Counted from the stretch's first letter, positions 9,469 through 64,000 are shown. The stretch is DNA of 64,000 bases from an uncultured Lentisphaerales bacterium (GCA_943788985.1 CALSSJ010000012.1:192001-256000), one strand, 5' to 3'. A program made the numbers and translations. The notes: generated by a model from the letters alone, not told the origin.

Positions 9469-9539
9469 TCGACACCCCATCCGGAGAGAGATCGTGCCTC
9501 TACTTCAAGGGCGATGGCACACACCGGAGCAAGATCGGC

Positions 9540-10473
9540 ATCACCCCGCAGCGCTCAAAGGGCGTGGCGGGCAGCTGTGACCCCGCCGGCAAGGTACTGA
9601 GCGTGGTCACGTGCCATGTGCAGGATGCTGCCAATGGCTTCGTGAACTCCATGTGAGAGCACCAAGGCAAGCCCTGTCGTGTGGGGACTTGATCAATCTC
9701 TACAACGATGGCTCACCGGGCCCCACAAAGCCACCATTATGCCCGAGGCGGTCAACACCGCGCTGCATCAGTGGCTACAGGACGAGGCCAACGTGCGTAT
9801 ACACCGCACCACAAACAAGCGCCCAGTCGACATGTTTGAGGAGGAAAAGCCAGCGCTACAACCACTTCCGGGCATCTCCCAGCCGTGCTGTGCGGTCGAT
9901 CGTAGCGTCAGCAACAGTTGCTGTCGAATCACCGTCGGCGACAACTACTACAGCATCCCAGCTGCCTACGCTTCGTAGCGGCTGATCTTGCAGCGCGGAG
10001 TCGATCGCATTTGTGTAAGAACCACCGAGGACGTCTTCGTCGCCGAACATATCCGCGGCTTCGCTCGCAAGCGCCCAGTCATCGATCCGCAGCACGAGAA
10101 ACAGATCGAAGACCTCACCAGCCGCGCCCGCCATAACCGGCAGGTTACCCTCTTCCTGCAACTCGGTAGCAGCGCATTCTCCTACCTGGACGGGCGCGAG
10201 GAGAAGCGCGTAAACTACCCGAGCCACATCCGGCGCATCAATGACGTTATTGCCACCTTTGGCTACGATCAGGTTGCTCGTGCCTTGGCTGAATACTAAC
10301 GGTAAAACGGTGCCTGTGGCGCTGACCACATCCACAACCTACATGGTTTGCGTCTGCGCAAAAAACAGCAAGAAGCAGGTGGGCCCTTACATCTCACCAG
10401 AAAAGCCGACCTGCTCCATATCGAGTTTCCCCCGGCCAAACTCAAGCTCTACGATCAGGACACACAGCTATGA
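9540..10473 (+). pseudogene. istA: IstA transposase remnant (C-terminal half)
   Basis: NTALHQWLQDEANVRIHRTTNKRPVDMFEEEKPALQPLP and ITVGDNYYSIP; stops at 9976-9978 and 10297-10299; 5' part missing. Confidence 0.8.
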
Positions 10474-11205
10474 CCGAACGCCTCCGGGCCACGATTAAGG
10501 AACTCAACCCCAGCTAGATCGCTGATAACCTCGACATCGAAACTGCCGAAGCCATCCGGCTCTCACGTCCGGCCCATGACCTCATCGAGCAGCTTTTCGA
10601 AGGCCCACTAGCTTATCGTCACAACCGCAGCGTCGAGCGCCGCATGCGTCAGGCCAAACTATCGCGGCGCAGGAGCTTGACTGACTTCGACTTCTACTGG
10701 CCATCGGTCATCAATGCCGACCAAGTTCGCGCGTTGTTCACCTTAGGCTTCCTGCGTGATGCAGACCAACATCGTCTTCATTGGCACCGTTGGCTTAGGG
10801 AAGACTCATCTTGCCTGCGCCCTCATCGCTAAAGCCTGCGAAAAGCGTAAGAACGCGTTGTTCAACCCATCAGTGAGCATGATCAACGAGTTCATCGACG
10901 CTCGTAAATACGGTACGTTATCCAAAGCCATCAAGCGCTCCCTACGCTGCGATCTATTGGCCATCTACAAACCTGGTTAATTACCCATGGACAAACTCAT
11001 TGCCGAGCTGGTATTTCGGGTTCTTGCAGGTCGTTACGAACGCGGCTCCACCATCATCACAATCAACCGTGTCTGCAAGGACTGGACCGTGACTTTTGCA
11101 GGTGACAGTGCAATGACGGCCGCCGTCCCAGACCGCATCGTCTATCATTGCCATACCGTTGTTATTGAGGAGTAGAGCTACAGAATGAAAGACCGCGTAA
11201 GCTAG
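10470..11205 (+). pseudogene. istB: IstB helper ATPase pseudogene
   Basis: LTDFDF, Walker A GTVGLGKTHLA, RYERGSTIIT, AVPDRIVYHC, IEE*SYRMKD; several stops and a frameshift. Confidence 0.85.
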
Positions 11206-11268
11206 CTAAGGGCTCATGGTGGCCGCATCGCAGCCCCTTCCTTTTTGGTGGGGCCAGCATTTATGCCG

Positions 11269-11853
11269 CTACTGAGGCCACCTCGGCATCTTCCGGAAGT
11301 CGTTTAGCATCGCCTCTTGACCTTGTGAGATGACCTCCGGTGTCGGATGTACGAGAGGGCATCCTTTTACGGCGATGCCCTTGCCGTAGACGTACCTTTC
11401 CAGTTGGACTAAAATCCCCGAGGCGATCAAGTCTTTCAGCGGCGATAGGACCGTGACCTCGGTCTCCGCCAGATTGAGAGTTCGCAGCGAAGCAAGGCCT
11501 GTGAAACAGGCAACAGATATTAGCTTGGAGTTGGCGCGGAGGTCGAGAGTGGGGATTATTATCAGGACCCAGGCGATTGCCCAGGCACACTCGTTATCAA
11601 TCTGGCAACGCCATAGGATAAGCGAGCGCAGCCGTTTGAGAGGCTTTAGCTTCTCTGCGACGTCCTCGCAAGTTTCCTTGAGTTGGCTAACCTGCTTTGC
11701 TCGTAGTTCAGGCTGCCACTCCGGCGGCGAGGGTGAGAGCCACCTGTCATGCCCGAGTAGAGCAAAGTCTTCTCGCCCTTCATCGCGGACCCGGGCAATG
11801 ACAGCGTCCAGTTGCTAGTGCGTAATCCGCGGCAGCGTTCCCTCTCTGGCCAT
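11269..11853 (-). pseudogene. LRR protein N-terminal remnant, Roco (LRR-Roc-COR)-like
   Basis: Hand translation, not in the ORF track: MAREGTLPRITH*QLD...LKRLRSLILWRCQI...TLDLRANSKL...LASLRTLNLAETEVTVLSPLKDL...GCPLVHPTPEVISQGQEAMLNDF; internal TAG at 11815-11817; runs into the IS21 end. Confidence 0.65.
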
Positions 11854-12153
11854 CCTTCTGACTCTCGTATGTATACTCTTTATCTAGGCTGCTTCGGGGC
11901 CGTATGGCGGCGCACATTTTATGCGTTCATGTGCAGTGAAATAAGAGGCAAATGCCAAAGATGAAGGCACTGACGGAAAGTTTTGCGAATTTCTCGCTAT
12001 ACTGCTCGGAGTGACAGCTCGGCGCGAGCTGGCGGGGGGGCTTAGTCAACGACGGGAGTCGCGTGGGACGCTGTGAAGACCCGGCGGAAGAACGGCACTG
12101 CCGTGCCTGACTACGAACAACGAAATCGTCCAAGGGACGATTGGATCAGCAGG

Positions 12154-14124
12154 TCAGACGACGCGGTCGTTGCCGCCATCGATCGGGATCTGCGCCCCGG
12201 TGGTCCGGGCGAAGAGGGGGCCAGCAAGGGCTTCGACTAAGGCGGCGACTTCCTGGGAGGAAACTGCGGTCTTGAGCAGATTGCGGGTGGTGTACTCGGA
12301 GACGGTCAGGCCGTAGTTGGCAGCTCGGGTCTCGAGCACGCCATCAGACCAGATGCCGGTGTCGTAGACAGCGTCAGGATGAAGGATGTTGACGCGGATG
12401 TTGTCGGCGGCTAGTTCGAGCGCGGCGACGCGTACGAGCTGGGTGAGACCGGCTTTAGCCGCGGAATAGGCGACGGCGCCGGGACCCGGTGCCGGGACGT
12501 TCTTGCTGCCGATGACGACGATAGCTGGATCGATGCCCGCACGGAGAAAGGGGATGCTGACCTGGAGTAGATTTTTGTGCTGGGTGAGGTTGAGCTGCAG
12601 GCTCTGGTCCCAGGTTGCATCGCTGAGGGTTTCGATTGGCTCGCCTGGGCTAAAGACGCCCGCGTTGCTGACGACGATGTCGAGGCCACCGAAGTGGCGC
12701 ACTGTGGCGTTTACTGCCTGGCGGATGGCCTCAGGATTGCGCAGATCGCAGATGAGACCGAGGGCCGCCGGGCTGTTGAAGAGCGTGGTGATTTTTGGGT
12801 CTACGTCCAGTGCGACGACGGCCGCGCCAGACTTGAGAAACTGTTCGCAGGTGGCGCGGCCAATGCCGCTAGCGGCACCGGTGACGAGGGCAATCTTGCC
12901 GCGAAGAGGTGGGGCACTTGCTTGCTTGCGAAGTTTGGCTTGCTCGAGCTCCCAGTACTCGACGTCGAAGATGTCAGCTGGGGAAAGGGCTTCCCAGCCG
13001 CCGAGGGATTCGGCAAGCTGCACGACTTTTGCGGTATGGGCCGCGATGTCGGCGATGATCGCAGCTTCGCGGCTGTCTGCACCGAGGGCGATGAGCCCGG
13101 CACCTGGCCAGATGGCCCAGCGCGGGGCCGGGTCGAGGCAGGTCAGGCCGTCCTGATTGTGCTGGTCGAAGTAGGCGCGGTAGGCGCTGGCGTAGTCGGA
13201 GATGTCTTGCTCGGCGTTGCCAGTCAAGACAACGGGCGTGCGCTTGGTCCGAATGGAATGGTCGGGAGTGACGGGGCCGCGGGCGCCAATCGTTGCGATG
13301 TCGGCACGATCAGCGTAGGCTCGCAGGGCAGGGCTGTCGTCCAGCTTGGCGAGGACTGGGATGCCGCGGAAGCGTGAGACGCAGGCGCGCAGCTTTGCCA
13401 GAGCCTGAAGGTCTATGGCGGGCTCAGCGGTGGCGCGTGGGGCTAGGGAAGCGCGACTGCTGAGGTATTCTTCTGCCTGGGTGACGAGCTTGATGTGTTG
13501 CTCGTACGAGGCTCGGGCATCGTCATGAAAGGTGAAGAGGCCGTGATTGAGCAGGACGATGCCGTCGAGTTGGTCCCAGTCGACGTCGCGGGTGCGCTCG
13601 TAGACTGCTTTGGCGAGGACGAAGCCAGGCATGACATAGGGAATGGTGAGGATCCGGGGGCCGAAGACTTCGCGGACGCGGGCTTCATTGTCGGGCGCGT
13701 TAGTGATCGCCAGGACGGCGTCTGCGTGGGAGTGGTCGACAAAGCGGAAGGGAATGATGGCGTGCAGGATGGCTTCGACGGAGGCGTTGGGGGCACCCGG
13801 ATCGAGCATGGCGAGGCGCTGTTGGCGGACCATCTCGGTGTCGGACAGGGATGCGCATTTTGCCAGTTGGAGGAGGACGTCGAGGCGGAGTGGTGCGAAC
13901 CCCGCAACTTCGATGGTGGCAAGGTCCCAGCCGCTTCCTTTGACGAACAGGGTCTCGAGCGGCGTGCCGAAGAAGTCATTCTCGGTCATCTTGACGCTGG
14001 TGTTGCCGCCGCCATGGAGGACGAGGTCAGGGTCTTGCCCGAGCAGGCGTGAGGTGTAAACGCGCAACGCTTTTGGGTCGTCGCCACAAGCGGCTGCTGC
14101 TGAATCATTCCAGAGGCTTTTCAT
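12154..14124 (-). CDS. Bifunctional class II aldolase / short-chain dehydrogenase (RhaEW/YuxG-like fusion)
   Basis: Aldolase motifs HGGGNTSVK, SVEAILH, DHSH, NHG; SDR motifs TGAASGIG, NAG, YSAAK. Confidence 0.9.
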   Translation of the reverse strand: MKSLWNDSAAAACGDDPKALRVYTSRLLGQDPDLVLHGGGNTSVKMTENDFFGTPLETLFVKGSGWDLATIEVAGFAPLRLDVLLQLAKCASLSDTEMVRQQRLAMLDPGAPNASVEAILHAIIPFRFVDHSHADAVLAITNAPDNEARVREVFGPRILTIPYVMPGFVLAKAVYERTRDVDWDQLDGIVLLNHGLFTFHDDARASYEQHIKLVTQAEEYLSSRASLAPRATAEPAIDLQALAKLRACVSRFRGIPVLAKLDDSPALRAYADRADIATIGARGPVTPDHSIRTKRTPVVLTGNAEQDISDYASAYRAYFDQHNQDGLTCLDPAPRWAIWPGAGLIALGADSREAAIIADIAAHTAKVVQLAESLGGWEALSPADIFDVEYWELEQAKLRKQASAPPLRGKIALVTGAASGIGRATCEQFLKSGAAVVALDVDPKITTLFNSPAALGLICDLRNPEAIRQAVNATVRHFGGLDIVVSNAGVFSPGEPIETLSDATWDQSLQLNLTQHKNLLQVSIPFLRAGIDPAIVVIGSKNVPAPGPGAVAYSAAKAGLTQLVRVAALELAADNIRVNILHPDAVYDTGIWSDGVLETRAANYGLTVSEYTTRNLLKTAVSSQEVAALVEALAGPLFARTTGAQIPIDGGNDRVV

Positions 14125-15179
14125 ACGGAGGAGTCGGCTGGTTCGTAGAGGTTTGCCAGGTTGGTGGCGTAGGGGGGAAGCACGAGCCCGCGATCGGTGA
14201 TAAGCCCGGTGACTAGGTCATGCGGCGTGACGTCGAAAGCTGGATTGCGCACTTGTATGTTCTCGGGGGCGGTGCGACGGGCGCCAAAATGGGTGACTTC
14301 TTCGGCGCTGCGCTCTTCGATCGGGATGCCGCTGCCGTCGGGGGTGCTGAAGTCGATAGTGGAGGAGGGCAGGGCGACATAGAAGGGGATGCCAAAATGC
14401 TTGGCGCAGATGGCGACGCCGAGGGTGCCGATCTTGTTGGCCACGTCACCGTTAGCAGCCACGCGGTCGGTGCCGGTAATGACGAGGTCGATCTCACCGG
14501 ATGCCATCATGTGAGCGGCCATGTTGTCGGTAATGGCGGTGACGTCGATGCCGCTGCGCTGAAGCTCCCAGCAGGTGAGGCGGGCGCCTTGGAGGAGCGG
14601 GCGGGTTTCGTCGGCAAAGACGCGAAAGTTGCGGCCCTGTTGCTGGGCGATGTACATGGGGGCGAGGGCGGTGCCGATGCCAGAGGTAGCGAGAGCGCCA
14701 GCGTTACAGTGTGTGAGGACACCCATTCCATCTTGGATCAACGGCGCACCATGTTCGCCCATGGCCTGGCACAAGGCTTGGTCTTCGGCGTGAATTTTCT
14801 GGGCCTGGGTGACGAGCGCATCGTACATTTGCGCGGCGGCCAGGTTGCTGAGGGATTCTGCTTTGCGGAGCATGCGATCCAGCGCCCAGCTGAGGTTTAC
14901 AGCGGTTGGGCGAGAGTCCGCGAGATAGGCGGCTTGTGCGCGCAGACCGGTGAGGAAGGCGGCGGGACTGGCGTTACGGAGTTCGCAAACCGCAACAAGT
15001 AAGCCATAGGCGGCGGCAACTCCGATGGCTGGCGCACCGCGGACTTTGAGCTGCTTGATGGAGTCCCAGACTTGCTCAGCGCTGGTCTGCTCTTCCATCA
15101 CTTCTTCCAGCGGCAACCGGGTCTGGTCCAGAAGGAAGAGGGCGCCATTGCGCCAGCTAACAGTTTCAGGGAGCGTCAT
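14121..15179 (-). CDS. mtnA: S-methyl-5-thioribose-1-phosphate isomerase
   Basis: LDQTRLP, VRGAPAIG, SRPTAVNL, LTHCNAGALAT, ETRPLLQGARLT, NGDVANKIGT, NPAFDVTP. Confidence 0.95.
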   Translation of the reverse strand: MTLPETVSWRNGALFLLDQTRLPLEEVMEEQTSAEQVWDSIKQLKVRGAPAIGVAAAYGLLVAVCELRNASPAAFLTGLRAQAAYLADSRPTAVNLSWALDRMLRKAESLSNLAAAQMYDALVTQAQKIHAEDQALCQAMGEHGAPLIQDGMGVLTHCNAGALATSGIGTALAPMYIAQQQGRNFRVFADETRPLLQGARLTCWELQRSGIDVTAITDNMAAHMMASGEIDLVITGTDRVAANGDVANKIGTLGVAICAKHFGIPFYVALPSSTIDFSTPDGSGIPIEERSAEEVTHFGARRTAPENIQVRNPAFDVTPHDLVTGLITDRGLVLPPYATNLANLYEPADSSV

Positions 15180-15451
15180 GGGACGGACAATACTGCGAAT
15201 CTGCTGGCAAGCAACTGCTAGCAGTCTGTCGGACTTGGGATGATCCGCTGCAAACCTGCGCGACTTCGGATTATTTCGCGGGTAATTTGGGTTGGGTACG
15301 CAGGGGCATCGGCGAGGTGTCCCCAGTGCACCGGAGCATCCAAAATCCCTCTCGCACTCACCTGCCAATTTACGATTCACCACACTAGTGCCTTTTGACT
15401 TGATAACGCTGGTGCATAGGGTCGGCGATCGAAACAGCGAAGGAGAGGGGC

Positions 15452-17008
15452 ATGGCCGTAGCGGAGACCTCGGAGCGACACACGGAGACTGAACTGGCTG
15501 ACGCTCCGGAGAACAACCTGATGCAGAGGCTGTTTTGTTCTCCCAACCGTGTCTTTTTGATCTCGTTTGTGCTCTTGCTGCTCTATAACATCGAGGCAAT
15601 CCAGGATCCTCCGTATTGGGACGAGATCGTGGGGCGTTTTAATACGGCTATTTTGTTGAAACAGACGGGGTGGGACTTTAGGCAGCTGTTCGTGCTTGAG
15701 CCGGGCTATTATGAGGGCGGATCGGCAATCGGAAAGTCCTTTTTGCTTACCTATGTAGAGGCTGTGATGTATGCGGTTCTGCCGCCGGCTGCGATTTTTG
15801 TGCTGCTGCATGTGATGACGATCGCTCTGGCAGCACTGGCCTTTACGTTGTCGTTCGTGCTGCTGGAAAAGCGTGTTGGTGCTGGTCTGGCTGGGCTCTG
15901 GTCGGGGGCAGCAGCGATGCTGCCGATGTGGAATGGGCAAACGGCGGCGCTGGGCAATGATGTGCCGGCCGCAGCCGCGGTGATGCTTGGACTCTACGCG
16001 TTCGACCGGGAACGATATGGCTGGTGTTGTGGTTGGGTGCTTCTGGCGTACCTGTTGAAATCCACGGGGATCATCTTGGCCCTAGCGCTGGTGACTTGGG
16101 CGGTGATTACAGCGGTGGCGGCGTGGCGCACGTCGCGGGTTGAGAGACAGTTTAGTGGAAGGGATATTAGCTTGTTGGTCGGGCCACTGCTGCTGATCAT
16201 TGGGCTGCGGTTTGGTGTTGATTACGGCGAGGGGATGGAGGGCGGCGCACAGCACTTGGCGCAAGGACTGGGCCGGGTGATGGGGTATGGAAAGTTGTGC
16301 ATCCCGCTTCTGTGCTTGAGTGTCCCGGTGCTGATTCTGGTAAGCGCTGGCTTCTTTCTGCGCAAGGGACTGTGGGCCCGGATTCTTGCGCATCGCTTGG
16401 AGTTGATGATTACGATTCTGGTGCTGGGTTTTTGGGCTTCGTTTGTTCTGTATGTGCACTCGCTGCCTCGGTATGCGTCGTTCGCGGTGTTTCCGACCGC
16501 GATGGCGATGTGCCTGATGCTGCCGCGACGGGTGGCCACGGGCCTGGGCATGGTTGTGCTTTGCTGGGGGGCGATCAACCAGCATGGGCTGTTGCTGCCG
16601 AAGTTGCCGTCGTACGTCGGGCGCTCTGGCGAGTATTTGGAGCGGAGCCGTGAGTACTTGGAGGATCTGGCGAGTAACCGGGCGCTTTGCAAATACCTGG
16701 AGGAGAATCACTTTGAGCGAACGATTGTGACCAAGTACCCGCACCTGCACATGCTGTGCTTGCCGGAACTGGGGTATGTGAGTCGGGCGCTGCCGAACGT
16801 GGTCGGGACAGGACTGGTGCCGACCACGGGAGCTGCCAAGCTGTTGCCAAAGGGGCAGGTGATCCCTGCTGGAGCGCTGGTGCTGTATGCGCCGAGCACG
16901 TTCGACTTGCTTTGCGATGTTTCTTTAATGCCTGGCCCCAAAGATCGGTTGATCGAAGGCGATCAGAGCCTGGCCACGCCTGTCCTGATCTATGAGCGGG
17001 GCCAGTAG
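15452..17008 (+). CDS. Polytopic membrane protein, GT-C-like glycosyltransferase
   Basis: More than 10 hydrophobic segments; DPPYWDE acidic motif after TM1; LLKSTG and LPRY. Confidence 0.55.
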   Translation: MAVAETSERHTETELADAPENNLMQRLFCSPNRVFLISFVLLLLYNIEAIQDPPYWDEIVGRFNTAILLKQTGWDFRQLFVLEPGYYEGGSAIGKSFLLTYVEAVMYAVLPPAAIFVLLHVMTIALAALAFTLSFVLLEKRVGAGLAGLWSGAAAMLPMWNGQTAALGNDVPAAAAVMLGLYAFDRERYGWCCGWVLLAYLLKSTGIILALALVTWAVITAVAAWRTSRVERQFSGRDISLLVGPLLLIIGLRFGVDYGEGMEGGAQHLAQGLGRVMGYGKLCIPLLCLSVPVLILVSAGFFLRKGLWARILAHRLELMITILVLGFWASFVLYVHSLPRYASFAVFPTAMAMCLMLPRRVATGLGMVVLCWGAINQHGLLLPKLPSYVGRSGEYLERSREYLEDLASNRALCKYLEENHFERTIVTKYPHLHMLCLPELGYVSRALPNVVGTGLVPTTGAAKLLPKGQVIPAGALVLYAPSTFDLLCDVSLMPGPKDRLIEGDQSLATPVLIYERGQ

Positions 17009-17102
17009 GGCGGGAAAACCCGGCCTGTTTTCAGGGAAGTACGTTGCGTTCAGGCAGAGCTGTTGTACTTAGGCGTAACGATTGAATGGTTTTGGGGGAC
17101 TC

Positions 17103-18470
17103 ATGCACAAGCCGTCTAGCCAGACGTCCAGACCGAATATCGTCTTTTTTCTGCTGGATGATCTCGGGATCAAGGATCTGGGCTGCTACGGCAGCGCGTT
17201 TCACGAATCGCCACGCATTAACCAAATGGCTGCGGAGGGGATGCGGTTTACGAATGCGTACGCCTCGCATCCAGTCTGTGGGCCTTCGCGGACTGCGATT
17301 CTGTCCGGGCGATCGCCCGGACGGCTGGGCGTGACGAACATTGGCGGGAAGATCGCGGGGGCTGGCGTGCCGTGGCCGAAGGTGCTGCAGGAGGCGGGCT
17401 ACGCGACCTGCTTTGTCGGGAAGTGGCATATGGGCTCGCGGGAATCGGTGCTGGAGAGTGGTTTCGATGTGAACGTGGCTGGCTGCGAAATTGGGCAGCC
17501 TTCTGACTTCTACTATCCGTACCGGTTCTATGACGATGGGCGAGCTTGCGACGGTGATGTCCCTGATATGGCGGATGGCAAGCCTGGGGACTACCTGACT
17601 GACAAGCTGACCGATAAGGCGCTCGACTTTGTGGAGGCGCATCAGGAGGAACCGTTCTTGGTGTACCTCTCGTATTATCAGACGCACAAGCCTCGAATTG
17701 CACCGGCACAGGGCAAGAAGGAGCATGTGGCGCACTTTCAACAGAAACTGGCGGGAATGCCAGAGCCTGCTGGTCCGACGACGCGGGTAGAGGTGCACGG
17801 CGAGGCGCAAACCGTGGAGTGCCTGGTGCAACGCAATGCGGAGTTCGCAGGGCAGATCAAGGCGGTGGACGACAATGTCGGGCGGGTTCTTGACCGATTG
17901 GAAGAGCTGGGGCTGGCTGAGAATACGATCGTGATCTTCACGGCGGATCAGGGGAGCGTCTGCACGAGCGAGGAATTCATGGTGTCGAGTCAGCAGCCGT
18001 ACCGGCTGGGCAAGGCCTGGATGTTCGACGGTGGGCTGCGGGTGCCGTTTTTGGTGCGTTGGCCGGGAATGGTTCCGGCGGGAGCGAAGAGTGACGTGGT
18101 GACAATTAGCACCGATCTTTATCCGACGATGTTGGCGGCAACTGGGCTGCCGGGGCGGCCTGAGCAGCATCAGGATGGGGCGAGTATTTTACCGGTTCTG
18201 TGCGAGGAGAAAGGCTTGCCTGAGCGGGCGCTGGTGTGGGTCTATGATTATGACCACGGCGAGCTTGGGCATAAGGCATCTGTGGCGATCCGCCATCGGG
18301 GGCACAAGCTGATTTACTGGCTCGGCGACGGCCATGCAGAACTTTATGATTCGGAGACCGATGTGGCTGAGGCGCAGGATCTCAGCGCGGAGTATCCGCA
18401 GCTGGTGGCATCCATGATTGATGAATTGAAACAAGTGGACTACATGGAGCAGTACCTATGTCAGAGTTGA
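17103..18470 (+). CDS. Sulfatase (formylglycine-dependent, Cys type)
   Basis: RPNIVFFLLDDLG, CGPSRTAILSG, GKWHMG, DGGLRVP. Confidence 0.95.
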   Translation: MHKPSSQTSRPNIVFFLLDDLGIKDLGCYGSAFHESPRINQMAAEGMRFTNAYASHPVCGPSRTAILSGRSPGRLGVTNIGGKIAGAGVPWPKVLQEAGYATCFVGKWHMGSRESVLESGFDVNVAGCEIGQPSDFYYPYRFYDDGRACDGDVPDMADGKPGDYLTDKLTDKALDFVEAHQEEPFLVYLSYYQTHKPRIAPAQGKKEHVAHFQQKLAGMPEPAGPTTRVEVHGEAQTVECLVQRNAEFAGQIKAVDDNVGRVLDRLEELGLAENTIVIFTADQGSVCTSEEFMVSSQQPYRLGKAWMFDGGLRVPFLVRWPGMVPAGAKSDVVTISTDLYPTMLAATGLPGRPEQHQDGASILPVLCEEKGLPERALVWVYDYDHGELGHKASVAIRHRGHKLIYWLGDGHAELYDSETDVAEAQDLSAEYPQLVASMIDELKQVDYMEQYLCQS

Positions 18471-20401
18471 CGGTGCCGGGAATTTTTGGTAATGGGATGG
18501 TTTTGCAGTGCGAGGCACCTGTGCCGGTGTGGGGCAAGGGGCCTGCGGGCGCTGAGATTTCGGTCTGCTTGAGGGCCAAGATGGCACGGGCACGCGTGGC
18601 GGATGATGGCTGTTGGCGGCTGGAACTGGAGCCACTGGCTGCCAGTGCAGAGCCGGCTGAGCTGCGAATTTCGGCAGAACCGGCTGCGGTGAATGGCAGC
18701 GTGACGATTCAGAACGTCCTGGTGGGCGAGGTCTGGGTTTGCTCCGGGCAGTCCAATATGGAATGGATTCTGCGTGATACGGAGAATGCGGTGGTGGAGA
18801 TTGCGGGAGCGGACTACCCGGAGATTCGCCGGTTTAAGGTTCCGCATTTGAGTGAGTTCGAAGAGCAGGATGACTGCCCCGGAAGCTGGGCAGTGTGCTC
18901 GCCCGAGACTGCAGCGTCCTTTACCGCGGTCGGGTACTACTTCGCAAAGGGGATTCGGCGCAGCAAGGATATTCCGGTGGGACTGATCAGCTCAAACTGG
19001 GGCGGGACGCCGGTCGAGAGCTGGAGCAGCCTGCCCGCTCTTCGGGCGCACGCAGACTGGGCAGATTTCGAGAAGCGGATCGCCGCTGTTCAGGAAACGC
19101 TGGCTGATCCGGAGAATGGAGATGATGTACGGGAGTCCGCAGCTTTTGCCCAGGCTCAGGAGGCATGGGATGTGCTGGCCGACTCGGAGCAGGCGTTTGC
19201 GCGGGTAGGGTTTGACGATAGCGCCTGGGACACGATGCTGGTGCCGCAGTTGTGGGAGAAGGTGGGGCTTGAGGTGGACGGGGTGGTCTGGTTCAGGACG
19301 ACGATCGAGCTACCGGCGGACTGGGCAGGCGAAGATGCGGTGCTAAACTTGGGCCCTGTGGACGACTACGATAATACGTTCTGGAATGGGACGCGGATCG
19401 GCGGTGTGGGGCCGGATACGGCGAACTCGTGGCAAGTACCACGGCAGTACACGATTGCTGGAGAGCTGATCAAGCCGGGGCGTAATTTGCTGGCGGTTCG
19501 TGTGTTCAATGTGATGGGGGCCGGGGGGATCTGCGGGACGCCCGAGGGATTGGCGCTTTGCCGCGCGAGCGGAGGAGCGGGGCTCAACCTGGCAGGTGAT
19601 TGGCGCTATCAAGTTCATCTGCGCCGGCCGTTGGGGGAACCACTTAATATGGGCTGGTTGCCGGGCGGGCTGTACAACGCGATGATCCATCCGCTTATTT
19701 CGTATGGGATTCGCGGGGTAATCTGGTATCAGGGCGAGTCGAATGCGGATCGGGCTCTTCAGTATCAAACGCTTTTTGCCGATATGATTCGGGACTGGCG
19801 GTCGGCATGGGGGCAGGGAGACTTTCCTTTCTATTTTGTGCAACTGGCCAATTTTAATGAGCCGCAGACGGAGCCCGGAAGTGGGAATTTTGCGGAGCTG
19901 CGGGAAGCGCAAACGATGGCTTTGGCACTGCCAGAGACGGGGATGGCTGTGATCGTAGATATTGGCGAAGCCGTGGATATCCATCCGCAGAACAAGCGCG
20001 ATGTGGGCGAGCGTCTGGCAGTGATCGCGCGGAACCAGATTTATGGTGAGCCGGAGCTGGTTTACTCAGGACCGCTGTACGAGTCGCAGCAGGCCGTGAA
20101 TGGCAGGCTGCAGCTCAAGTTTACGCACGCTGGTACTGGGATTACCACGGCCGAGATTCACAGCGAAGGGAAGTACACGGTGCGGGAGCCGGGCAAGATC
20201 GCACCGAGCGGTTTCGCGTTGGGCAAGCCTGATGGGAGTTGGGTCTGGGCGCAGGCTCGGATTGTCGGGCTGGACACGATTGAGCTCTGGCATGATGAGG
20301 TACCGGCGCCCAGCGATGTTCGCTATGGCTGGCACGACAACCCGGTGTGCAATGTCTACAATCGCGAGGGCTTGCCCGCCGTTCCGTTTCGAACTCGATA
20401 A
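18458..20401 (+). CDS. Sialate O-acetylesterase-family (SASA) carbohydrate esterase with inserted beta-sandwich
   Basis: GEVWVCSGQSNM, WGGT, GVIWYQGESN, DIHP. Confidence 0.92.
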   Translation: MSELTVPGIFGNGMVLQCEAPVPVWGKGPAGAEISVCLRAKMARARVADDGCWRLELEPLAASAEPAELRISAEPAAVNGSVTIQNVLVGEVWVCSGQSNMEWILRDTENAVVEIAGADYPEIRRFKVPHLSEFEEQDDCPGSWAVCSPETAASFTAVGYYFAKGIRRSKDIPVGLISSNWGGTPVESWSSLPALRAHADWADFEKRIAAVQETLADPENGDDVRESAAFAQAQEAWDVLADSEQAFARVGFDDSAWDTMLVPQLWEKVGLEVDGVVWFRTTIELPADWAGEDAVLNLGPVDDYDNTFWNGTRIGGVGPDTANSWQVPRQYTIAGELIKPGRNLLAVRVFNVMGAGGICGTPEGLALCRASGGAGLNLAGDWRYQVHLRRPLGEPLNMGWLPGGLYNAMIHPLISYGIRGVIWYQGESNADRALQYQTLFADMIRDWRSAWGQGDFPFYFVQLANFNEPQTEPGSGNFAELREAQTMALALPETGMAVIVDIGEAVDIHPQNKRDVGERLAVIARNQIYGEPELVYSGPLYESQQAVNGRLQLKFTHAGTGITTAEIHSEGKYTVREPGKIAPSGFALGKPDGSWVWAQARIVGLDTIELWHDEVPAPSDVRYGWHDNPVCNVYNREGLPAVPFRTR

Positions 20402-20420
20402 GGAGTCGGAATCACAAAAC

Positions 20421-22682
20421 ATGAAGAGCCTGATAGTCATGAGTTTAATCACTGCCACATTTGCTGCGACAGCAGAGGAAACATTACCCGCACTGAAGGA
20501 TGGCACGGGGCCGCAAAATTTTGAGGAGCTGTGGGCTGGTTTTGACCCGCAGGCGGAGCCGCTGGATGTGGAGGTACTGCAGGAATGGGAAGAGGATGGA
20601 GTGCTGTTGAAGGTGCTTCGCTATCGCATCGGTGTGTTCAAGGGGCAGAGGGCGATGATGGCGGCTGTGTATGGTGCGCCGAAGGACGGCAGCGACTTGC
20701 CAGGGTTGGTGCAGATTCACGGTGGTGGCCAGTACGCGCACTCGAATGCTTGCCTGACTAATGCGAAGCGTGGCTACGCGACCCTTTCGGTCGCTTGGGC
20801 TGGGCGGCTTTCGGGCGGGGGCTATCATGTCAGCCCGGGCGTGGTGAAGCTCTACTGGGAAGGCAAAACCGATGACCCGAGTTATAAAGTGACGACTGAT
20901 TGGGGCGCGTTGGACGGGTATCACGCGCCGTTTCGCTATCAGCATGCATTTTCGGTTGCGAAGCCCCATGAGCACTCGTTCGACGCGGTGGCTTCGCCAC
21001 GGAATGACTCCTGGTTTCTCTGTGCGCTCGGAGCGCGCCGAGCCCTGACATTTCTGGAGCGGCAGCCAGAGGTGAATGGCGAGAAACTTGGCGTCTATGG
21101 GCACTCGATGGGCGGCAAGCTTACGGTGATGACAGCCGGTGCAGATGCTCGGGTGAAAGCCGCAGCTCCGTCCTGTGGCGGAATCAGCCATCGCAATGAT
21201 AAGGATCCGCTGATTTCTACGACGACGTGCGATGATGTGTACTTGAAGCGCTTGAGCTGTCCGATCATGTTCTTGAGCCCGGCGAACGACTTTCACGGCC
21301 GGATCGATGACTTGGAAACGGCAGTTAGGGAGATCAAAACTGAGGAATGGCGAATTACTTCGGCCGCGCATCATAACCACCAAGACACTGCTGACTATGA
21401 GGTCGCGACGCAGTTGTGGATGGACGAGCACCTAAAGGGTACGTTTAGCTGGCCGGAGACGCCGCAGGTGGAGCTGACGCTTGTGGGTAAGGAGATGCCC
21501 GAGGCGCTGGTGACTCCGGATGCGTCACGGCGAATTTTGTCGGTGGATGTGTATTATTCGCAGCAGTTTGATCAGCCAGCCGGGGATCGGTTCTGGCATT
21601 ATGTGGCACCTGTTCAGAACGGTGGAAGCTGGCTGGCCAAGCTGCCGCTGCACAGTGTGGACAAGGAAGTTGCGGTGTTCGCGAACATACGCTATGCCTT
21701 GGACGAGCCGGTTACGGGGGCAGGCTACTACTACGGAATCTACACGACGGAGGCAGCAAACCTTTCGTCCTTGCTACAGGTGATCAGCGTCAAGGAGTTG
21801 AAGGCGGCGAAGATCGGCGCGACGATGAAGCAGTCGCAGCTGATTGAGAGTTTTGAGGGGGATTGGGAGAAGGAGTGGTTTACGTACAAGCAAGATCCGG
21901 CGCTGTGGGGAAGAACCACGCGGAAGGCCTGTGACGATGCCTACCGGGCTCCGGCCTTTGCTAAGCTGGCCCTCGAGGTTCAGGCCGAGCAGGCGAATAC
22001 ACTGAGGGTGGGGCTGGGCCAGATGAACGCTGAAGTCGCGCTGGAGGGTGGGGGCAATTGGCAGGAGGTCGTACTATTTCCCGTGGACTTTGCGGATGCT
22101 GATGGCGCCGTCCGGCTTGACTGGGAGGGCGTTTGGGAGCTTTCGCTGGACAAGAGCGGAAAGTGGCAAGGAGCCGCGCCAGCGTTTCGGAATCTGCGTT
22201 GGCAGGAGGGGATGCGCGAGGAATTGAATGCGCGCCGTGAGGTGAAGCTGCTCCAGGCACCAGTCGTGGCTGGCAAGGTTTTCTTGGACGTCGAGTATGC
22301 GGATGCGGCGACGCACGGTTACAAGATCGCGATGAATAGCTGGCTAGATGGGAAGCCACTGGTAAGAGACGGGAAGACCTACGCCAACGGGCTTAGTACT
22401 CATGCCGCTTCGGAGCTGGTCTTCTTTCTGGGCGGGAAGTTCGAGGGGTTCGATGCCATTGCGCTAGCCGGGCCGGGCGCCACAGTCGCTTTCTCCGTGC
22501 GCGTCGATGGTGCCACGGTGTTCGAGAGCGGGGCGCTTAAGCCGGACCAGTCCAAGCCCATTGCCCTGTCTTTACGCGGTCGGCAGGAGCTGAAGCTGGT
22601 CGTGACAGACGGCGGCAATGGCAAGGGCGGCGATCACGCCTGCTGGTTGGACGCGCAACTGACGCTGTCCGCTGAGAAGTAG
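20421..22682 (+). CDS. Secreted alpha/beta hydrolase with C-terminal NPCBM carbohydrate-binding domain
   Basis: Signal peptide after an AGGAG RBS; HGGG and GHSMGG; C-terminal GLSTHAASEL...LKLVVTDGGNGKGGDHACW. Confidence 0.8.
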   Translation: MKSLIVMSLITATFAATAEETLPALKDGTGPQNFEELWAGFDPQAEPLDVEVLQEWEEDGVLLKVLRYRIGVFKGQRAMMAAVYGAPKDGSDLPGLVQIHGGGQYAHSNACLTNAKRGYATLSVAWAGRLSGGGYHVSPGVVKLYWEGKTDDPSYKVTTDWGALDGYHAPFRYQHAFSVAKPHEHSFDAVASPRNDSWFLCALGARRALTFLERQPEVNGEKLGVYGHSMGGKLTVMTAGADARVKAAAPSCGGISHRNDKDPLISTTTCDDVYLKRLSCPIMFLSPANDFHGRIDDLETAVREIKTEEWRITSAAHHNHQDTADYEVATQLWMDEHLKGTFSWPETPQVELTLVGKEMPEALVTPDASRRILSVDVYYSQQFDQPAGDRFWHYVAPVQNGGSWLAKLPLHSVDKEVAVFANIRYALDEPVTGAGYYYGIYTTEAANLSSLLQVISVKELKAAKIGATMKQSQLIESFEGDWEKEWFTYKQDPALWGRTTRKACDDAYRAPAFAKLALEVQAEQANTLRVGLGQMNAEVALEGGGNWQEVVLFPVDFADADGAVRLDWEGVWELSLDKSGKWQGAAPAFRNLRWQEGMREELNARREVKLLQAPVVAGKVFLDVEYADAATHGYKIAMNSWLDGKPLVRDGKTYANGLSTHAASELVFFLGGKFEGFDAIALAGPGATVAFSVRVDGATVFESGALKPDQSKPIALSLRGRQELKLVVTDGGNGKGGDHACWLDAQLTLSAEK

Positions 22683-22689
22683 GCGTCGG

Positions 22690-24039
22690 ATGAATAATGG
22701 CATCACCGAGAAAGGCATGTTGGTCACGCACGCGGCAGTGGATGGCGAGCCGTTGTCAGAGGACTATCGAATTTGGGTCAATAGCCAGAGCGTTCCTGTG
22801 TACGTGGCACAGCTGGATGACTATCGAAACAGTCCGCTGGACATGGAGGACTTTTACTCGTTCGCGAGCTTTGAGTTTGCGGGGCCAGTGACGGTGGTGA
22901 TCGAGTCGAGCGAACCACTGACGGCGCTTTCGATTCGACCGAATGCGGAGGATGTGGCGGTCGAACTGGAGGGGAATAGGGCTACGTTTGCGCTGGAGCG
23001 CTGCGAGAACTTCTTGATCGAGCGCAACGGCAACGGACGCAAGGATCCGCTGCTGCTGTTCGCGAATCCAATGGAGGTTGAGCCACCAGTGGCGGGTGCC
23101 CCGGACGTGGTGCACTTCGGGGCAGGGCGGCATAACCCCGGTCTGATCGAACTGCACAGCGGCCAGACGCTCTATATTGCTGGGGGAGCGATTGTCACGG
23201 GTAGGGTGGTGGCCCGGGGAGACGGCATCCAGATCCTGGGGCGCGGCCTGCTGGAGAACTCGGCGCAGGAATACTACGGGAAGCATATGGTCCTGTTCGA
23301 GAACTGCACAAATGCGAGGATCGAGGGCATCGTGTTGCGCAAGGCCAGTCAACATTGGACGCTGGTGACGAAGCAATGTGACGGCGTGGTGGTCTCAAAC
23401 GTCAAGATCTGCGGGTCTTTCTACGGGAACGATGACGGCATCGACCCGGTGAATACCCGGAACATGCTGGTGGAAAAATGCCTGATCCGAACCAAGGATG
23501 ACTGCCTGGCGTTCAAGGGGATGGATGACGCGCTAAGCAACTGCGAGAACATCACCGTCACCCACACGACGATGTGGACGGACCAGTGCTGCACGATTCT
23601 GTTGGGAGATGAGTCCCGCGCCGCGCACATGCGAAACATTACGATTAAGGACTGCTTCGTGCCCTACCTCAGTTATGAGGGATATCCGAAGAAGTTCCTG
23701 ATGTTGCACGCAGGGGAGGAGATGCGGCTGGAGAACATCCAGATCGAGAATATCCAGATTTGCGGCGAGGGCCAGGATCACAATTACATCGAGATGTGCT
23801 GTGAGTTCAACCAATACTGTAAGTCGCAGACTGCGGGAATCATCAGCAACATTTTGCTCAAGGACATCCATCTGACGGGGGATGACGGCGGCTACGTGAT
23901 CCTGCTCAAAGGCTACGACGAGGCCCACCCGATTGAGGATGTCGTGTTCGAAAACTGTACGATTAATGGCCGTCGGCTGACTGCCGAGTATCCGAATCTC
24001 GAGGCCAACGAGTTTGTCCGGGGGACGACGTTCGGCTAA
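22690..24039 (+). CDS. GH28-like beta-helix glycoside hydrolase
   Basis: NDDGIDP and TKDDCLAFK acidic motifs; repeated NITI/NIQI beta-helix strands. Confidence 0.75.
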   Translation: MNNGITEKGMLVTHAAVDGEPLSEDYRIWVNSQSVPVYVAQLDDYRNSPLDMEDFYSFASFEFAGPVTVVIESSEPLTALSIRPNAEDVAVELEGNRATFALERCENFLIERNGNGRKDPLLLFANPMEVEPPVAGAPDVVHFGAGRHNPGLIELHSGQTLYIAGGAIVTGRVVARGDGIQILGRGLLENSAQEYYGKHMVLFENCTNARIEGIVLRKASQHWTLVTKQCDGVVVSNVKICGSFYGNDDGIDPVNTRNMLVEKCLIRTKDDCLAFKGMDDALSNCENITVTHTTMWTDQCCTILLGDESRAAHMRNITIKDCFVPYLSYEGYPKKFLMLHAGEEMRLENIQIENIQICGEGQDHNYIEMCCEFNQYCKSQTAGIISNILLKDIHLTGDDGGYVILLKGYDEAHPIEDVVFENCTINGRRLTAEYPNLEANEFVRGTTFG

Positions 24040-63593: not shown

Positions 63594-64000
63594 ATGTCTA
63601 AGATGAACGAAATGGACGTAATTGTTGAGTTATCGCACGAGTTCGGCGGTCCTGCGTATGTCAAAGGCGGAGGTGGCAACACCTCGGTCAAGAACGAAAG
63701 CACCTTGTGGGTTAAGCCCTCTGGGACCACACTTTCCGGATTGACCCCGGAAAGGTTCGTGGCGATGAACCGAGCCAAAATCGACGATCTGTACGCGGTG
63801 CCTACGCCTAAGGACGCTGGTGCCCGCGAGGAGACCGTGAAAAACCTGATGGCGGCGGCTGTAGAGAATGACGCGGGACGCCCCTCGGTAGAAGCACCGC
63901 TGCACAATGTCTTTGAGGCTACCTACGTCGTGCACACGCACCCTATGTTGGTGAACGGGCTGACCTGTGCCGTGGACGGCGAGGCCGCCTGTGAACGGCT
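63594..64000 (+). CDS. Class II aldolase family protein, 3'-truncated by window edge
   Basis: Hand translation GGGGNTSVK, VKPSG, RPSVEAPLH, VVHTHP. Confidence 0.88.
   Translation, partial: MSKMNEMDVIVELSHEFGGPAYVKGGGGNTSVKNESTLWVKPSGTTLSGLTPERFVAMNRAKIDDLYAVPTPKDAGAREETVKNLMAAAVENDAGRPSVEAPLHNVFEATYVVHTHPMLVNGLTCAVDGEAACER

Follow-up and report, generated by a model that had tools for sequence, protein, structure and literature searches.

A class II aldolase–short-chain dehydrogenase fusion encoded in overlap with mtnA in a Lentisphaerales bacterium: candidate for a fused variant of the dihydroxyacetone phosphate shunt

Results

Overlap of mtnA with an aldolase–dehydrogenase fusion gene

In a 64,000 nt stretch of the genome of an uncultured Lentisphaerales bacterium (GCA_943788985.1 CALSSJ010000012.1:192001-256000; hereafter the window, in whose numbering positions are given) we analysed two genes of the minus strand: mtnA and, directly downstream, a gene specifying a protein in which a class II aldolase domain is fused to a short-chain dehydrogenase/reductase (SDR) domain (Table 1). 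The plus strand reads TCAT at the junction, which is ATGA on the minus strand, such that the mtnA stop codon TGA (14123..14121) shares bases with the ATG of the fusion gene (14124..14122). An earlier, sequence-only reading of this DNA had placed the mtnA stop on the fusion start in just this way, and the sequence bears it out. Because of this overlap, the family matches described below, the hairpin that follows the fusion stop codon and the lack of any Rfam match in the region (none at E ≤ 1 within 9500-16000), we read mtnA and the fusion gene as a putative two-gene operon. The hairpin is weak evidence, as terminator-like sites were no commoner than in shuffled sequence; similarly, no sigma-70-like site was detected in the intergenic region between mtnA and the divergent open reading frame (ORF), and the sigma-70 scan was no richer than shuffled sequence.

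Table 1. Features of the mtnA–fusion locus, its surroundings and related genes elsewhere in the genomes studied (window positions unless a contig or locus is named)
Feature	Position	Strand	Basis or remark
mtnA, isomerase of 5-methylthioribose-1-phosphate/5-deoxyribose-1-phosphate (352 aa)	14121..15179	-	TIGR00512, PF01008
Class II aldolase–SDR fusion gene (656 aa), NCBIfam NF006196	12154..14124	-	Profile score
ATGA overlap, mtnA stop/fusion start	14121..14124	-	Direct sequence reading
Aldolase_II domain, fusion residues 22-220	13465..14061	-	PF00596 at 1.2e-14
Middle region of fusion, residues 221-405, common to RhaE-type proteins; its end is the invariant D384-W391 linker motif	12910..13464	-	
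Classical SDR domain, C-terminal, fusion residues 410-651	12172..12897	-	PF00106 at 1.1e-39
Terminator-like hairpin, 12 bases 3' of the fusion stop	12124..12142	-	8-pair stem, then T-rich tail
Intergenic region, mtnA to divergent ORF; presumed promoter region	15180..15451	.	Gene positions only
Divergent ORF beside mtnA (518 aa)	15452..17008		No Pfam match
Sulfatase	17082-18470		Polysaccharide-degradation cluster beyond the divergent ORF
SASA-type carbohydrate esterase	18458-20401		Polysaccharide-degradation cluster
Esterase-NPCBM protein	20100-22682		Polysaccharide-degradation cluster
GH28	22690-24039		Polysaccharide-degradation cluster
Decayed IS21-family element beyond the fusion stop	9600-11200		
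IstB_IS21 gene, broken into three frames	10644-10832, 10756-10980, 10987-11175		
355-aa stand-alone RhaE-like aldolase	63595-64000, on to 64662 past the window (L122:5595-6662)		
237-aa class II aldolase, in a row of DeoR, Zn-dependent dehydrogenase and aldolase genes	G000:C12:175911-178477 (L121:3912-6478)		~14 kb before the window
AraD-like class II aldolase/epimerase gene	G000:C30:125042-125656		In-frame TAG
Row of purC, MTAP-like gene and MtaD/DadD-like amidohydrolase gene	G000:C8:20771-23852 (L123:4772-7852)		

Family assignment and conserved residues

The mtnA product scored 442.2 bits against the equivalog model TIGR00512 (salvage_mtnA; cut-off 279) and 479.6 bits against NF004326 (cut-off 271), matched PF01008 (IF-2B) at 3.3e-87, and is encoded by the single mtnA copy found in the genome. 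The fusion protein scored 900.8 bits (cut-off 831) against NF006196, 'bifunctional aldolase/short-chain dehydrogenase' (PRK08324.2-4), and this match runs from end to end, with residues 1-656 placed on profile positions 1-657. It fell below the cut-offs of both aldolase/SDR fusion models that are named for rhamnulose-1-phosphate, these being TIGR02632 (RhaD_aldol-ADH; 422 bits vs 567.75) and NF006189 (418.6 bits vs 634). By profile score the fusion is thus a member of the NF006196 subfamily and not of the rhamnulose-1-phosphate subfamily.

Both domains retain the residues expected of working enzymes. Across 73 orthologs the aldolase domain has E117, H131, H133, H194 and the motifs GGGNTS (G38-S43) and KGSG (G63-G65) invariant or nearly so, which we take to be the catalytic glutamate, three metal-binding histidines and phosphate-binding Gly/Ser/Thr residues. 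The same holds in the SDR domain, where the adh_short (PF00106) match itself spans residues 410-591, for T415-G416-x3-G420-x-G422, D440, N487-A-G489, S540, Y553 and K557; the middle region averages 45 % identity to the orthologs. Classical SDRs are marked by TGxxxGxG, NNAG and a Ser-Tyr-Lys set, with an Asp closing beta-2 where NAD is preferred, and D440, which closes the second strand of this domain, is an NAD-type signature. By their conserved residues, both domains of the fusion look active.

The nearest solved structure to the N-terminal domain is PDB 3m4r, a 222-residue 'uncharacterized protein' (8.3e-52 by protein, 1.7e-73 by profile), which resembles this domain but stands alone, without an SDR and with no function recorded. 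The profile search of PDB returned only this entry, and neither FucA nor DrdA chains were among the hits at E ≤ 0.01; because the profile reaches no further, our mapping of catalytic residues depends on a weak, two-step alignment. In this alignment, made by way of the small aldolase of the same genome, the HxH and NHG motifs of the fusion register with the metal-binding histidines of FucA and DrdA at an hhalign probability of only 19.7 %, which is consistent with a shared metal site, yet short of proof. The role of Glu76 of DrdA as a catalytic residue is taken from the literature (PMC6079011). A sulfoquinovose-type function was considered as well and set aside, the sole match being a generic one of the SDR domain to 9gwu.

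Linkage to mtnA among orthologs

We assembled orthologs from 80 loci in at least ten phyla, with 48-59 % identity to the fusion and flanks totalling 924 kb (61 of the loci having ≥ 1.1 kb on both sides). A gene for MtnA lies ≤ 8 kb from the ortholog at six of these loci. At one mtnA per 3.5 Mb, ∼0.26 loci would be expected by chance (Poisson P(≥ 6) = 4e-7; P(≥ 4) = 2e-4), values that are rough as related genomes are not independent. The arrangements are mtnK-mtnA-fusion, with overlapping genes, in a member of the Polyangiaceae (L042); fusion-mtnP-mtnA in a zetaproteobacterium (L074); fusion-mtnA in three Betaproteobacteria (L067, L079, L082); and mtnA, two small ORFs and the fusion in Arcobacter (L022).

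A FastTree phylogeny of 89 rows was then built from the window protein, 73 orthologs, 11 same-phylum orthologs and four RhaEW-like outgroups, leaving out seven of the 80 loci (ORF calls of < 600 or > 760 aa) together with the interrupted or cut loci L090 and L091. The label 'mtnA-adjacent' requires six changes for seven rows on this tree, at least four of them forced by well-supported branches, and in 84 of 500 shuffles it clusters at least as strongly; the scatter therefore indicates that the pairing arose repeatedly, at least four separate times. Linkage of the fusion to mtnA is, in short, rare but recurrent. No neighbour is conserved over the 80 orthologs, the largest cluster being GGDEF proteins at 10 loci, and the other clusters comprise lineage-specific housekeeping genes and sulfatases. 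At four loci (L012, L014, L015 and L032, from Omnitrophota, Planctomycetota and Woeseia) a gene for a Na+-dependent nucleoside transporter (PF07662/PF01773) was seen 2-6 kb from the fusion.

Co-occurrence with MtnA at the genome level

Linkage aside, we asked which salvage proteins are encoded in 64 fusion-bearing genomes, i.e. those of the first 50 of the 80 loci, 13 others from the phylum and the source genome. MtnA exceeded its cut-off in 54 (53 of 63, plus the source genome) and MTAP in 39, or 48 when E ≤ 1e-40 was applied. For 29 genomes the fusion was the sole Aldolase_II match; 23 of these have MtnA over cut-off, and in two more MtnA fragments are cut by contig ends. In such sole-aldolase genomes with MtnA, no other enzyme of the class II aldolase fold is at hand to take up the MtnA product. 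As a background, an even sample of the phylum contained MtnA in 123 of 401 genomes, and the proportion was 116/391 without an ortholog of the fusion vs 6/9 with one, the latter becoming 10/13 when the order is added. Within the order, all five fusion carriers have MtnA, and none of the four MtnA-less genomes has the fusion. We consider a functional link between the NF006196 fusion and MtnA to be well supported.

The carriers include sulfur-oxidising Gammaproteobacteria and symbionts, Crocosphaera, Cyanothece, Omnitrophota, Chloroflexota, Bdellovibrionota and bacteria of the Planctomycetes–Verrucomicrobia–Chlamydiae (PVC) group. Five fusion-bearing genomes of Omnitrophota and Planctomycetota (G416, G418, G419, G433 and G439) also contain a second, divergent MtnA-like gene (∼200-217 bits, below cut-off), after which come a brief stretch resembling MtnA and an open frame of 344-402 aa that holds an Aldolase_II gene (e.g. 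G419:C49:11257-13241). These form a separate isomerase–aldolase cluster.

Salvage genes and other aldolases of the source genome

The assembly comprises 4.58 Mb and is 83.6 % complete, so that absences from it are not proven. At this completeness MtnK, MtnN, MtnC, ARD/MtnD and RuBisCO-like protein (RLP) were not found, and no protein exceeded the MtnB cut-off (best 58.5 bits vs 137), meaning that the canonical methionine salvage set of MtnB, MtnC or MtnW/X, and MtnD was not recovered. The sequence-only reading had proposed a survey for mtnP, mtnK, mtnN and an absent mtnBCD; the absence was as foreseen, whilst of the three upstream enzymes only an MTAP-like protein came to light. This 238-aa phosphorylase has MTAP and MTI phosphorylase as its best families and scores 182 bits against a curated cut-off of 274.85. 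Its gene overlaps purC by 4 bases and is followed in the same row by that of a 418-aa amidohydrolase, whose best matches are deaminase models of the MtaD/DadD type, all below their cut-offs. From these matches the pair is a plausible deaminase-first source of 5-methylthioribose-1-phosphate or 5-deoxyribose-1-phosphate, by way of inosine analogues.

Four Aldolase_II domains are encoded in the genome, belonging to the fusion, an AraD-like protein and proteins of 237 and 355 aa. The 237-aa protein fits no curated model and has 6voq, 6vop and 6btd (DrdA, 4.8e-17) as its nearest PDB entries. The 355-aa protein shows similarity to aldolase/SDR fusions over their N-terminal two thirds only and stops exactly at the inter-domain linker, with no SDR remnant detected downstream; its gene stands in a row with those of a GFO/IDH/MocA oxidoreductase, a weakly matching GH88-like protein and an esterase.

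Rhamnose genes

The two-domain fusion is usually annotated as a rhamnose enzyme. We looked for rhamnose genes around the pair and across genomes. The ORFs scanned between 3355 and 31268 include no rhamnose isomerase or kinase and no mtnB, mtnC or mtnD, in keeping with the earlier statement that none lies nearby; elsewhere, however, two RhaA genes, of which one adjoins a GH78 rhamnosidase, and one RhaB-like kinase (468 bits vs a cut-off of 528) are encoded. These are scattered, none has an aldolase adjoining, and no RhaD was found in the genome. Some aldolase must therefore cleave rhamnulose-1-phosphate, and the fusion is one candidate.

Amongst the 64 fusion-bearing genomes RhaA was found in four (RhaI-type isomerases not forming part of the search) and a rhamnulokinase-like gene (E ≤ 1e-60) in nine, none of them over cut-off. 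In the 15 genomes of the order, RhaA is present in eight. A relative of the 355-aa protein occurs in 8/8 RhaA-positive vs 1/7 RhaA-negative genomes, and the NF006196 fusion in 3/8 vs 2/7; RhaA thus tracks the other aldolase family within the order and not the NF006196 fusion. The counterparts of the 355-aa protein in these genomes are full aldolase/SDR fusions of 640-696 aa, and the fusion of the window shares only 26-30 % identity per domain with such RhaEW-like proteins of the order. Moreover, two genomes (G380 and G130) hold both fusion types, and here it is the 30 %-identical paralogue that adjoins a rhamnulokinase-like gene (G380) or lies ∼7 kb from one (G130), the NF006196 ortholog being placed elsewhere. 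Given the rarity of RhaA and the kinase in carriers, the pattern in the order and these two neighbourhoods, the rhamnose role would seem to have a better candidate in the 355-aa RhaE-like protein than in the fusion, with the 237-aa aldolase as a second.

Flanking regions and RNA-library contigs

Beyond the divergent ORF upstream of mtnA lies a polysaccharide-degradation cluster, and beyond the fusion stop codon a decayed IS21-family element (Table 1), where the transposase-like fragments upstream of the broken IstB_IS21 gene gave no Pfam match. Contigs of two RNA-library runs from one study match the window up to 12085-12119 and 15337-15351 and then diverge; strain-variable flanks would thus seem to enclose the module at either end. 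A horizontal origin of the pair was considered and set aside: its G + C content is 62-65 % vs 57-60 % around it, and on the tree the fusion falls among PVC rows.

RNA-library contigs from two studies cover parts of mtnA and of the fusion gene, and one of them (X17 record 5; 13712-14250) bridges the overlap. Library X18 has no contig over the overlap, whilst in X19 only 9 and in X20 only 8 of 30 bins are covered; in contig data, gaps of this kind prove nothing. Since RNA-library contigs can contain DNA, they do not prove a single mtnA-fusion transcript.

Discussion

A proposed fused end to the shunt

The gene identities, the overlap of the two reading frames, the intact motifs in both fusion domains, the co-occurrence with MtnA and the recurrent operons with mtnK or mtnP are all matters of observation. 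Together with the comparisons below, they lead us to propose that the pair probably ends a fused variant of the dihydroxyacetone phosphate (DHAP) shunt, disposing of 5'-methylthioadenosine and 5'-deoxyadenosine, the by-products of S-adenosylmethionine. The deaminase-like and MTAP-like pair encoded elsewhere would supply 5-methylthioribose-1-phosphate or 5-deoxyribose-1-phosphate, and MtnA would isomerise these ribose-1-phosphates to ribulose-1-phosphates. The N-terminal domain, presumed to be metal-dependent, would then break the C3-C4 bond to release DHAP, after which oxidation by the NAD-type SDR domain would turn the two-carbon fragment into 2-(methylthio)acetate or acetate. These substrates, and the order of the two reactions, are put forward by analogy, and so is the oxidative direction of the SDR, which we expect because RhaEW, the only characterised relative, uses NAD+ and is inactive with NADH; it converts rhamnulose-1-phosphate to DHAP and L-lactate with NAD+, and gives no cleavage products without it (PMC3870299). 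Fusing a dehydrogenase to this enzyme makes sense because aldehydes are reactive and the aldol equilibrium favours condensation (PMC6079011): oxidation would pull the equilibrium and spare the cell a free reactive aldehyde.

In the DHAP shunt, or 5-deoxyribose disposal, as described for Rhodospirillum rubrum, extraintestinal Escherichia coli and Bacillus thuringiensis, MtnP or MtnN plus MtnK is followed by MtnA/DrdI and Ald2/DrdA (EC 4.1.2.62) (PMC6079011, PMC10986504, PMC13474568). A 2026 review recognises two variations, which differ in their start (MtnP, or MtnN plus MtnK) and both end in the small aldolase Ald2, and gives the aldehyde-reducing enzyme of the shunt as unknown (PMC13474568). 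The pair studied here resembles this pathway in having MtnA as entry isomerase and, in the same operon, an enzyme of the class II, metal-dependent aldolase fold, as the ATGA overlap and the operons at L042 and L074 indicate; relatives have mtnK or mtnP in such operons, and the products expected by analogy are likewise DHAP and a two-carbon fragment. It differs in that the FucA-like Ald2/DrdA of ∼210-220 aa, which stands alone, is replaced in the operon by a 656-aa protein of the RhaE branch, whose N-terminal profile misses FucA and DrdA at E ≤ 0.01. A dehydrogenase is fused on, unlike in the known shunt, where aldehyde handling falls to a separate enzyme left unidentified in the same review (PMC13474568), and the first step here would be taken by an MTAP-like protein below cut-off, beside a deaminase-like gene.

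With RhaEW the fusion shares the two-domain architecture, the metal ligands, the SDR catalytic residues and the NAD-type cofactor signature, but it is distant in sequence from the RhaEW-like proteins of the order, is below the TIGR02632 cut-off, and lies outside any rha locus, RhaA not having been found in 60 of the 64 ortholog-bearing genomes. Fusions of a class II aldolase-fold enzyme acting on 5-methylthioribulose-1-phosphate to the enzyme of the next step are known from Arabidopsis DEP1 (MtnB-HAD) and Tetrahymena MtnBD (PMC6079011, PMC6302742). In these the partner is a HAD phosphatase or a dioxygenase and the chemistry dehydration, as opposed to the SDR partner and C-C cleavage proposed here. 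We found no description of an aldolase/SDR fusion in a DHAP-shunt role in the literature covered, which did not extend to the possibly relevant North et al. 2020 (PMC7237333). What would be new, and on balance we favour it, is the replacement of Ald2, in a pathway resembling the DHAP shunt, by a non-orthologous enzyme that is fused to a dehydrogenase.

Points that weigh against the proposal

Several observations count against a fused shunt. The sequence-only reading had named conservation of the neighbourhood shared by mtnA and the fusion as a check, and the linkage is not conserved: 74 of the 80 distant orthologs have no mtnA in the flanks examined, making linkage the exception, none of 13 same-phylum orthologs has mtnA within 1.5 kb, and no aldolase was found next to mtnA at 29 loci sampled in the phylum, where its neighbours are unrelated (e.g. 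Rce1-like, AIRS/ThiL-like, GT2 and FtsJ). In terms of distribution, MtnB is over cut-off in six of the 64 fusion-bearing genomes, six genomes of the order have MtnA and no fusion, and three genomes of one family in the same class (G380, G301 and G182; 92-96 % complete) carry an ortholog of 51-52 % identity, with MtnA and MTAP not found; in this lineage the fusion must have another substrate source. Within the source genome, the ribose-1-phosphate supply depends on a phosphorylase below its cut-off, the 237-aa protein could, from its nearest structures, be a fuculose- or rhamnulose-1-phosphate aldolase or one of the Ald2 type, and the rhamnose genes without RhaD leave a rhamnose role argued away only indirectly; the incompleteness of the assembly has to be counted here as well. 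Lastly, the characterised RhaE substrate is an L-threo ketose-1-phosphate, the ribulose-1-phosphates are D-erythro, and therefore a change of specificity must be assumed.

The earlier suggestion that the fusion acts on the MtnA product accordingly survives in part. It is upheld by the co-occurrence (54/64 vs 116/391), by the recurrent mtnK and mtnP operons and by the lack of detected MtnB, MtnC, MtnD, MtnK, MtnN and RLP in this genome, and it is held back by the unconserved linkage and the presence of rhamnose genes.

Alternative explanations

A different order of events within the fusion is possible, though we regard it as doubtful. The enzyme may be an oxidise-first C-C hydrolase, in which the SDR domain, by ordinary SDR chemistry, oxidises the C4 hydroxyl of 5-deoxy- or 5-methylthioribulose-1-phosphate to give a 2,4-diketone, and the metal site then cleaves this with water. 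On that tentative scheme the products would be DHAP and acetate or methylthioacetate, with no free aldehyde, and the net reaction would be that measured for RhaEW. The 5-deoxy diketone of such a route would be the compound cleaved by LsrF in the breakdown of autoinducer-2. The order would explain why RhaEW gave no cleavage products without NAD+ (PMC3870299), and, if true, it would reinterpret the whole RhaEW family.

The main rival to a fused shunt is that the fusion is the RhaEW of this organism, cleaving L-rhamnulose-1-phosphate derived from pectin or rhamnogalacturonan and oxidising the L-lactaldehyde, with its position beside mtnA being incidental. The two RhaA genes, one by a GH78 rhamnosidase, and the RhaB-like kinase without RhaD would fit this, as would the sulfatase, SASA esterase, NPCBM and GH28 cluster that the operon faces, the loss of the SDR half by the 355-aa RhaE-like protein, and an architecture equal to that of characterised RhaEW (PMC3870299). 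Against this, the fusion is below the TIGR02632 cut-off and each of its domains is just 26-30 % identical to its RhaEW-like counterparts in the order; RhaA and rhamnulokinase-like genes are found in few ortholog-bearing genomes (4 and 9 of 64); RhaA in the order follows the other fusion family (8/8) and not NF006196 (3/8); and in G380 and G130 it is the paralogue, not the ortholog, that is near the rhamnulokinase-like gene. As such, we judge the probability that the fusion serves rhamnose catabolism to be rather low.

The sequence-only reading had itself offered the alternative that MtnA is repurposed, for a deoxy-sugar phosphate from polysaccharide breakdown; the pair would then act on a different deoxy- or modified pentose or hexose 1-phosphate set free from marine polysaccharides. 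The polysaccharide-degrading surroundings of the operon and the three fusion genomes without MtnA or MTAP are in its favour, and so is the promiscuity of the MtnA family for 5-substituted ribose-1-phosphates (PMC6079011, PMC10986504). However, MtnA is far above its equivalog cut-off, the operon has no kinase or phosphorylase for another sugar, and the six linked relatives lie outside polysaccharide loci, two of them with mtnK or mtnP, so that we find this explanation quite improbable. Slightly more improbable still is that mtnA and the fusion are neighbours through chance or a recent rearrangement and share no pathway. The want of linkage in all 13 same-phylum orthologs, the decayed IS21 element just downstream of the fusion and the strain-variable flanks at both ends of the pair speak for such an accident; the four bases shared by stop and start codon, a pairing that arose at least four times elsewhere where 0.26 loci would be expected, and the strong co-occurrence of fusion and MtnA in genomes speak against it. 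The least credible option is an MtnB-like dehydratase as N-terminal domain (same fold, same metal site), with the SDR then reducing or oxidising the diketone along an unknown route back to methionine: MtnB belongs to the same Pfam family, fused MtnB proteins exist, MtnB is absent from 58 of the 64 fusion-bearing genomes and Arabidopsis DEP1 also shows aldolase activity on 5-deoxyribulose-1-phosphate (PMC6079011), yet the fusion has no MtnB model match, MtnC and MtnD were not found in the genome to finish the route, and the nearest characterised relative, RhaEW, yields DHAP.

Implications

Should the pair indeed end a fused variant of the DHAP shunt, it would constitute a third variation of that pathway, and the fusion would be a candidate to fill its aldehyde-handling gap. 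It would also be a candidate for the gap in cyanobacterial 5'-deoxyadenosine salvage, a 2021 paper having reported that some cyanobacteria possess mtnP and mtnA only, Ald2 being absent (PMC8102628). The widespread annotation of this fusion as a rhamnose-type enzyme would stand corrected, and the predicted fate of the sulfur would change from methylthioethanol, from which methanethiol and ethylene are formed, to methylthioacetate.

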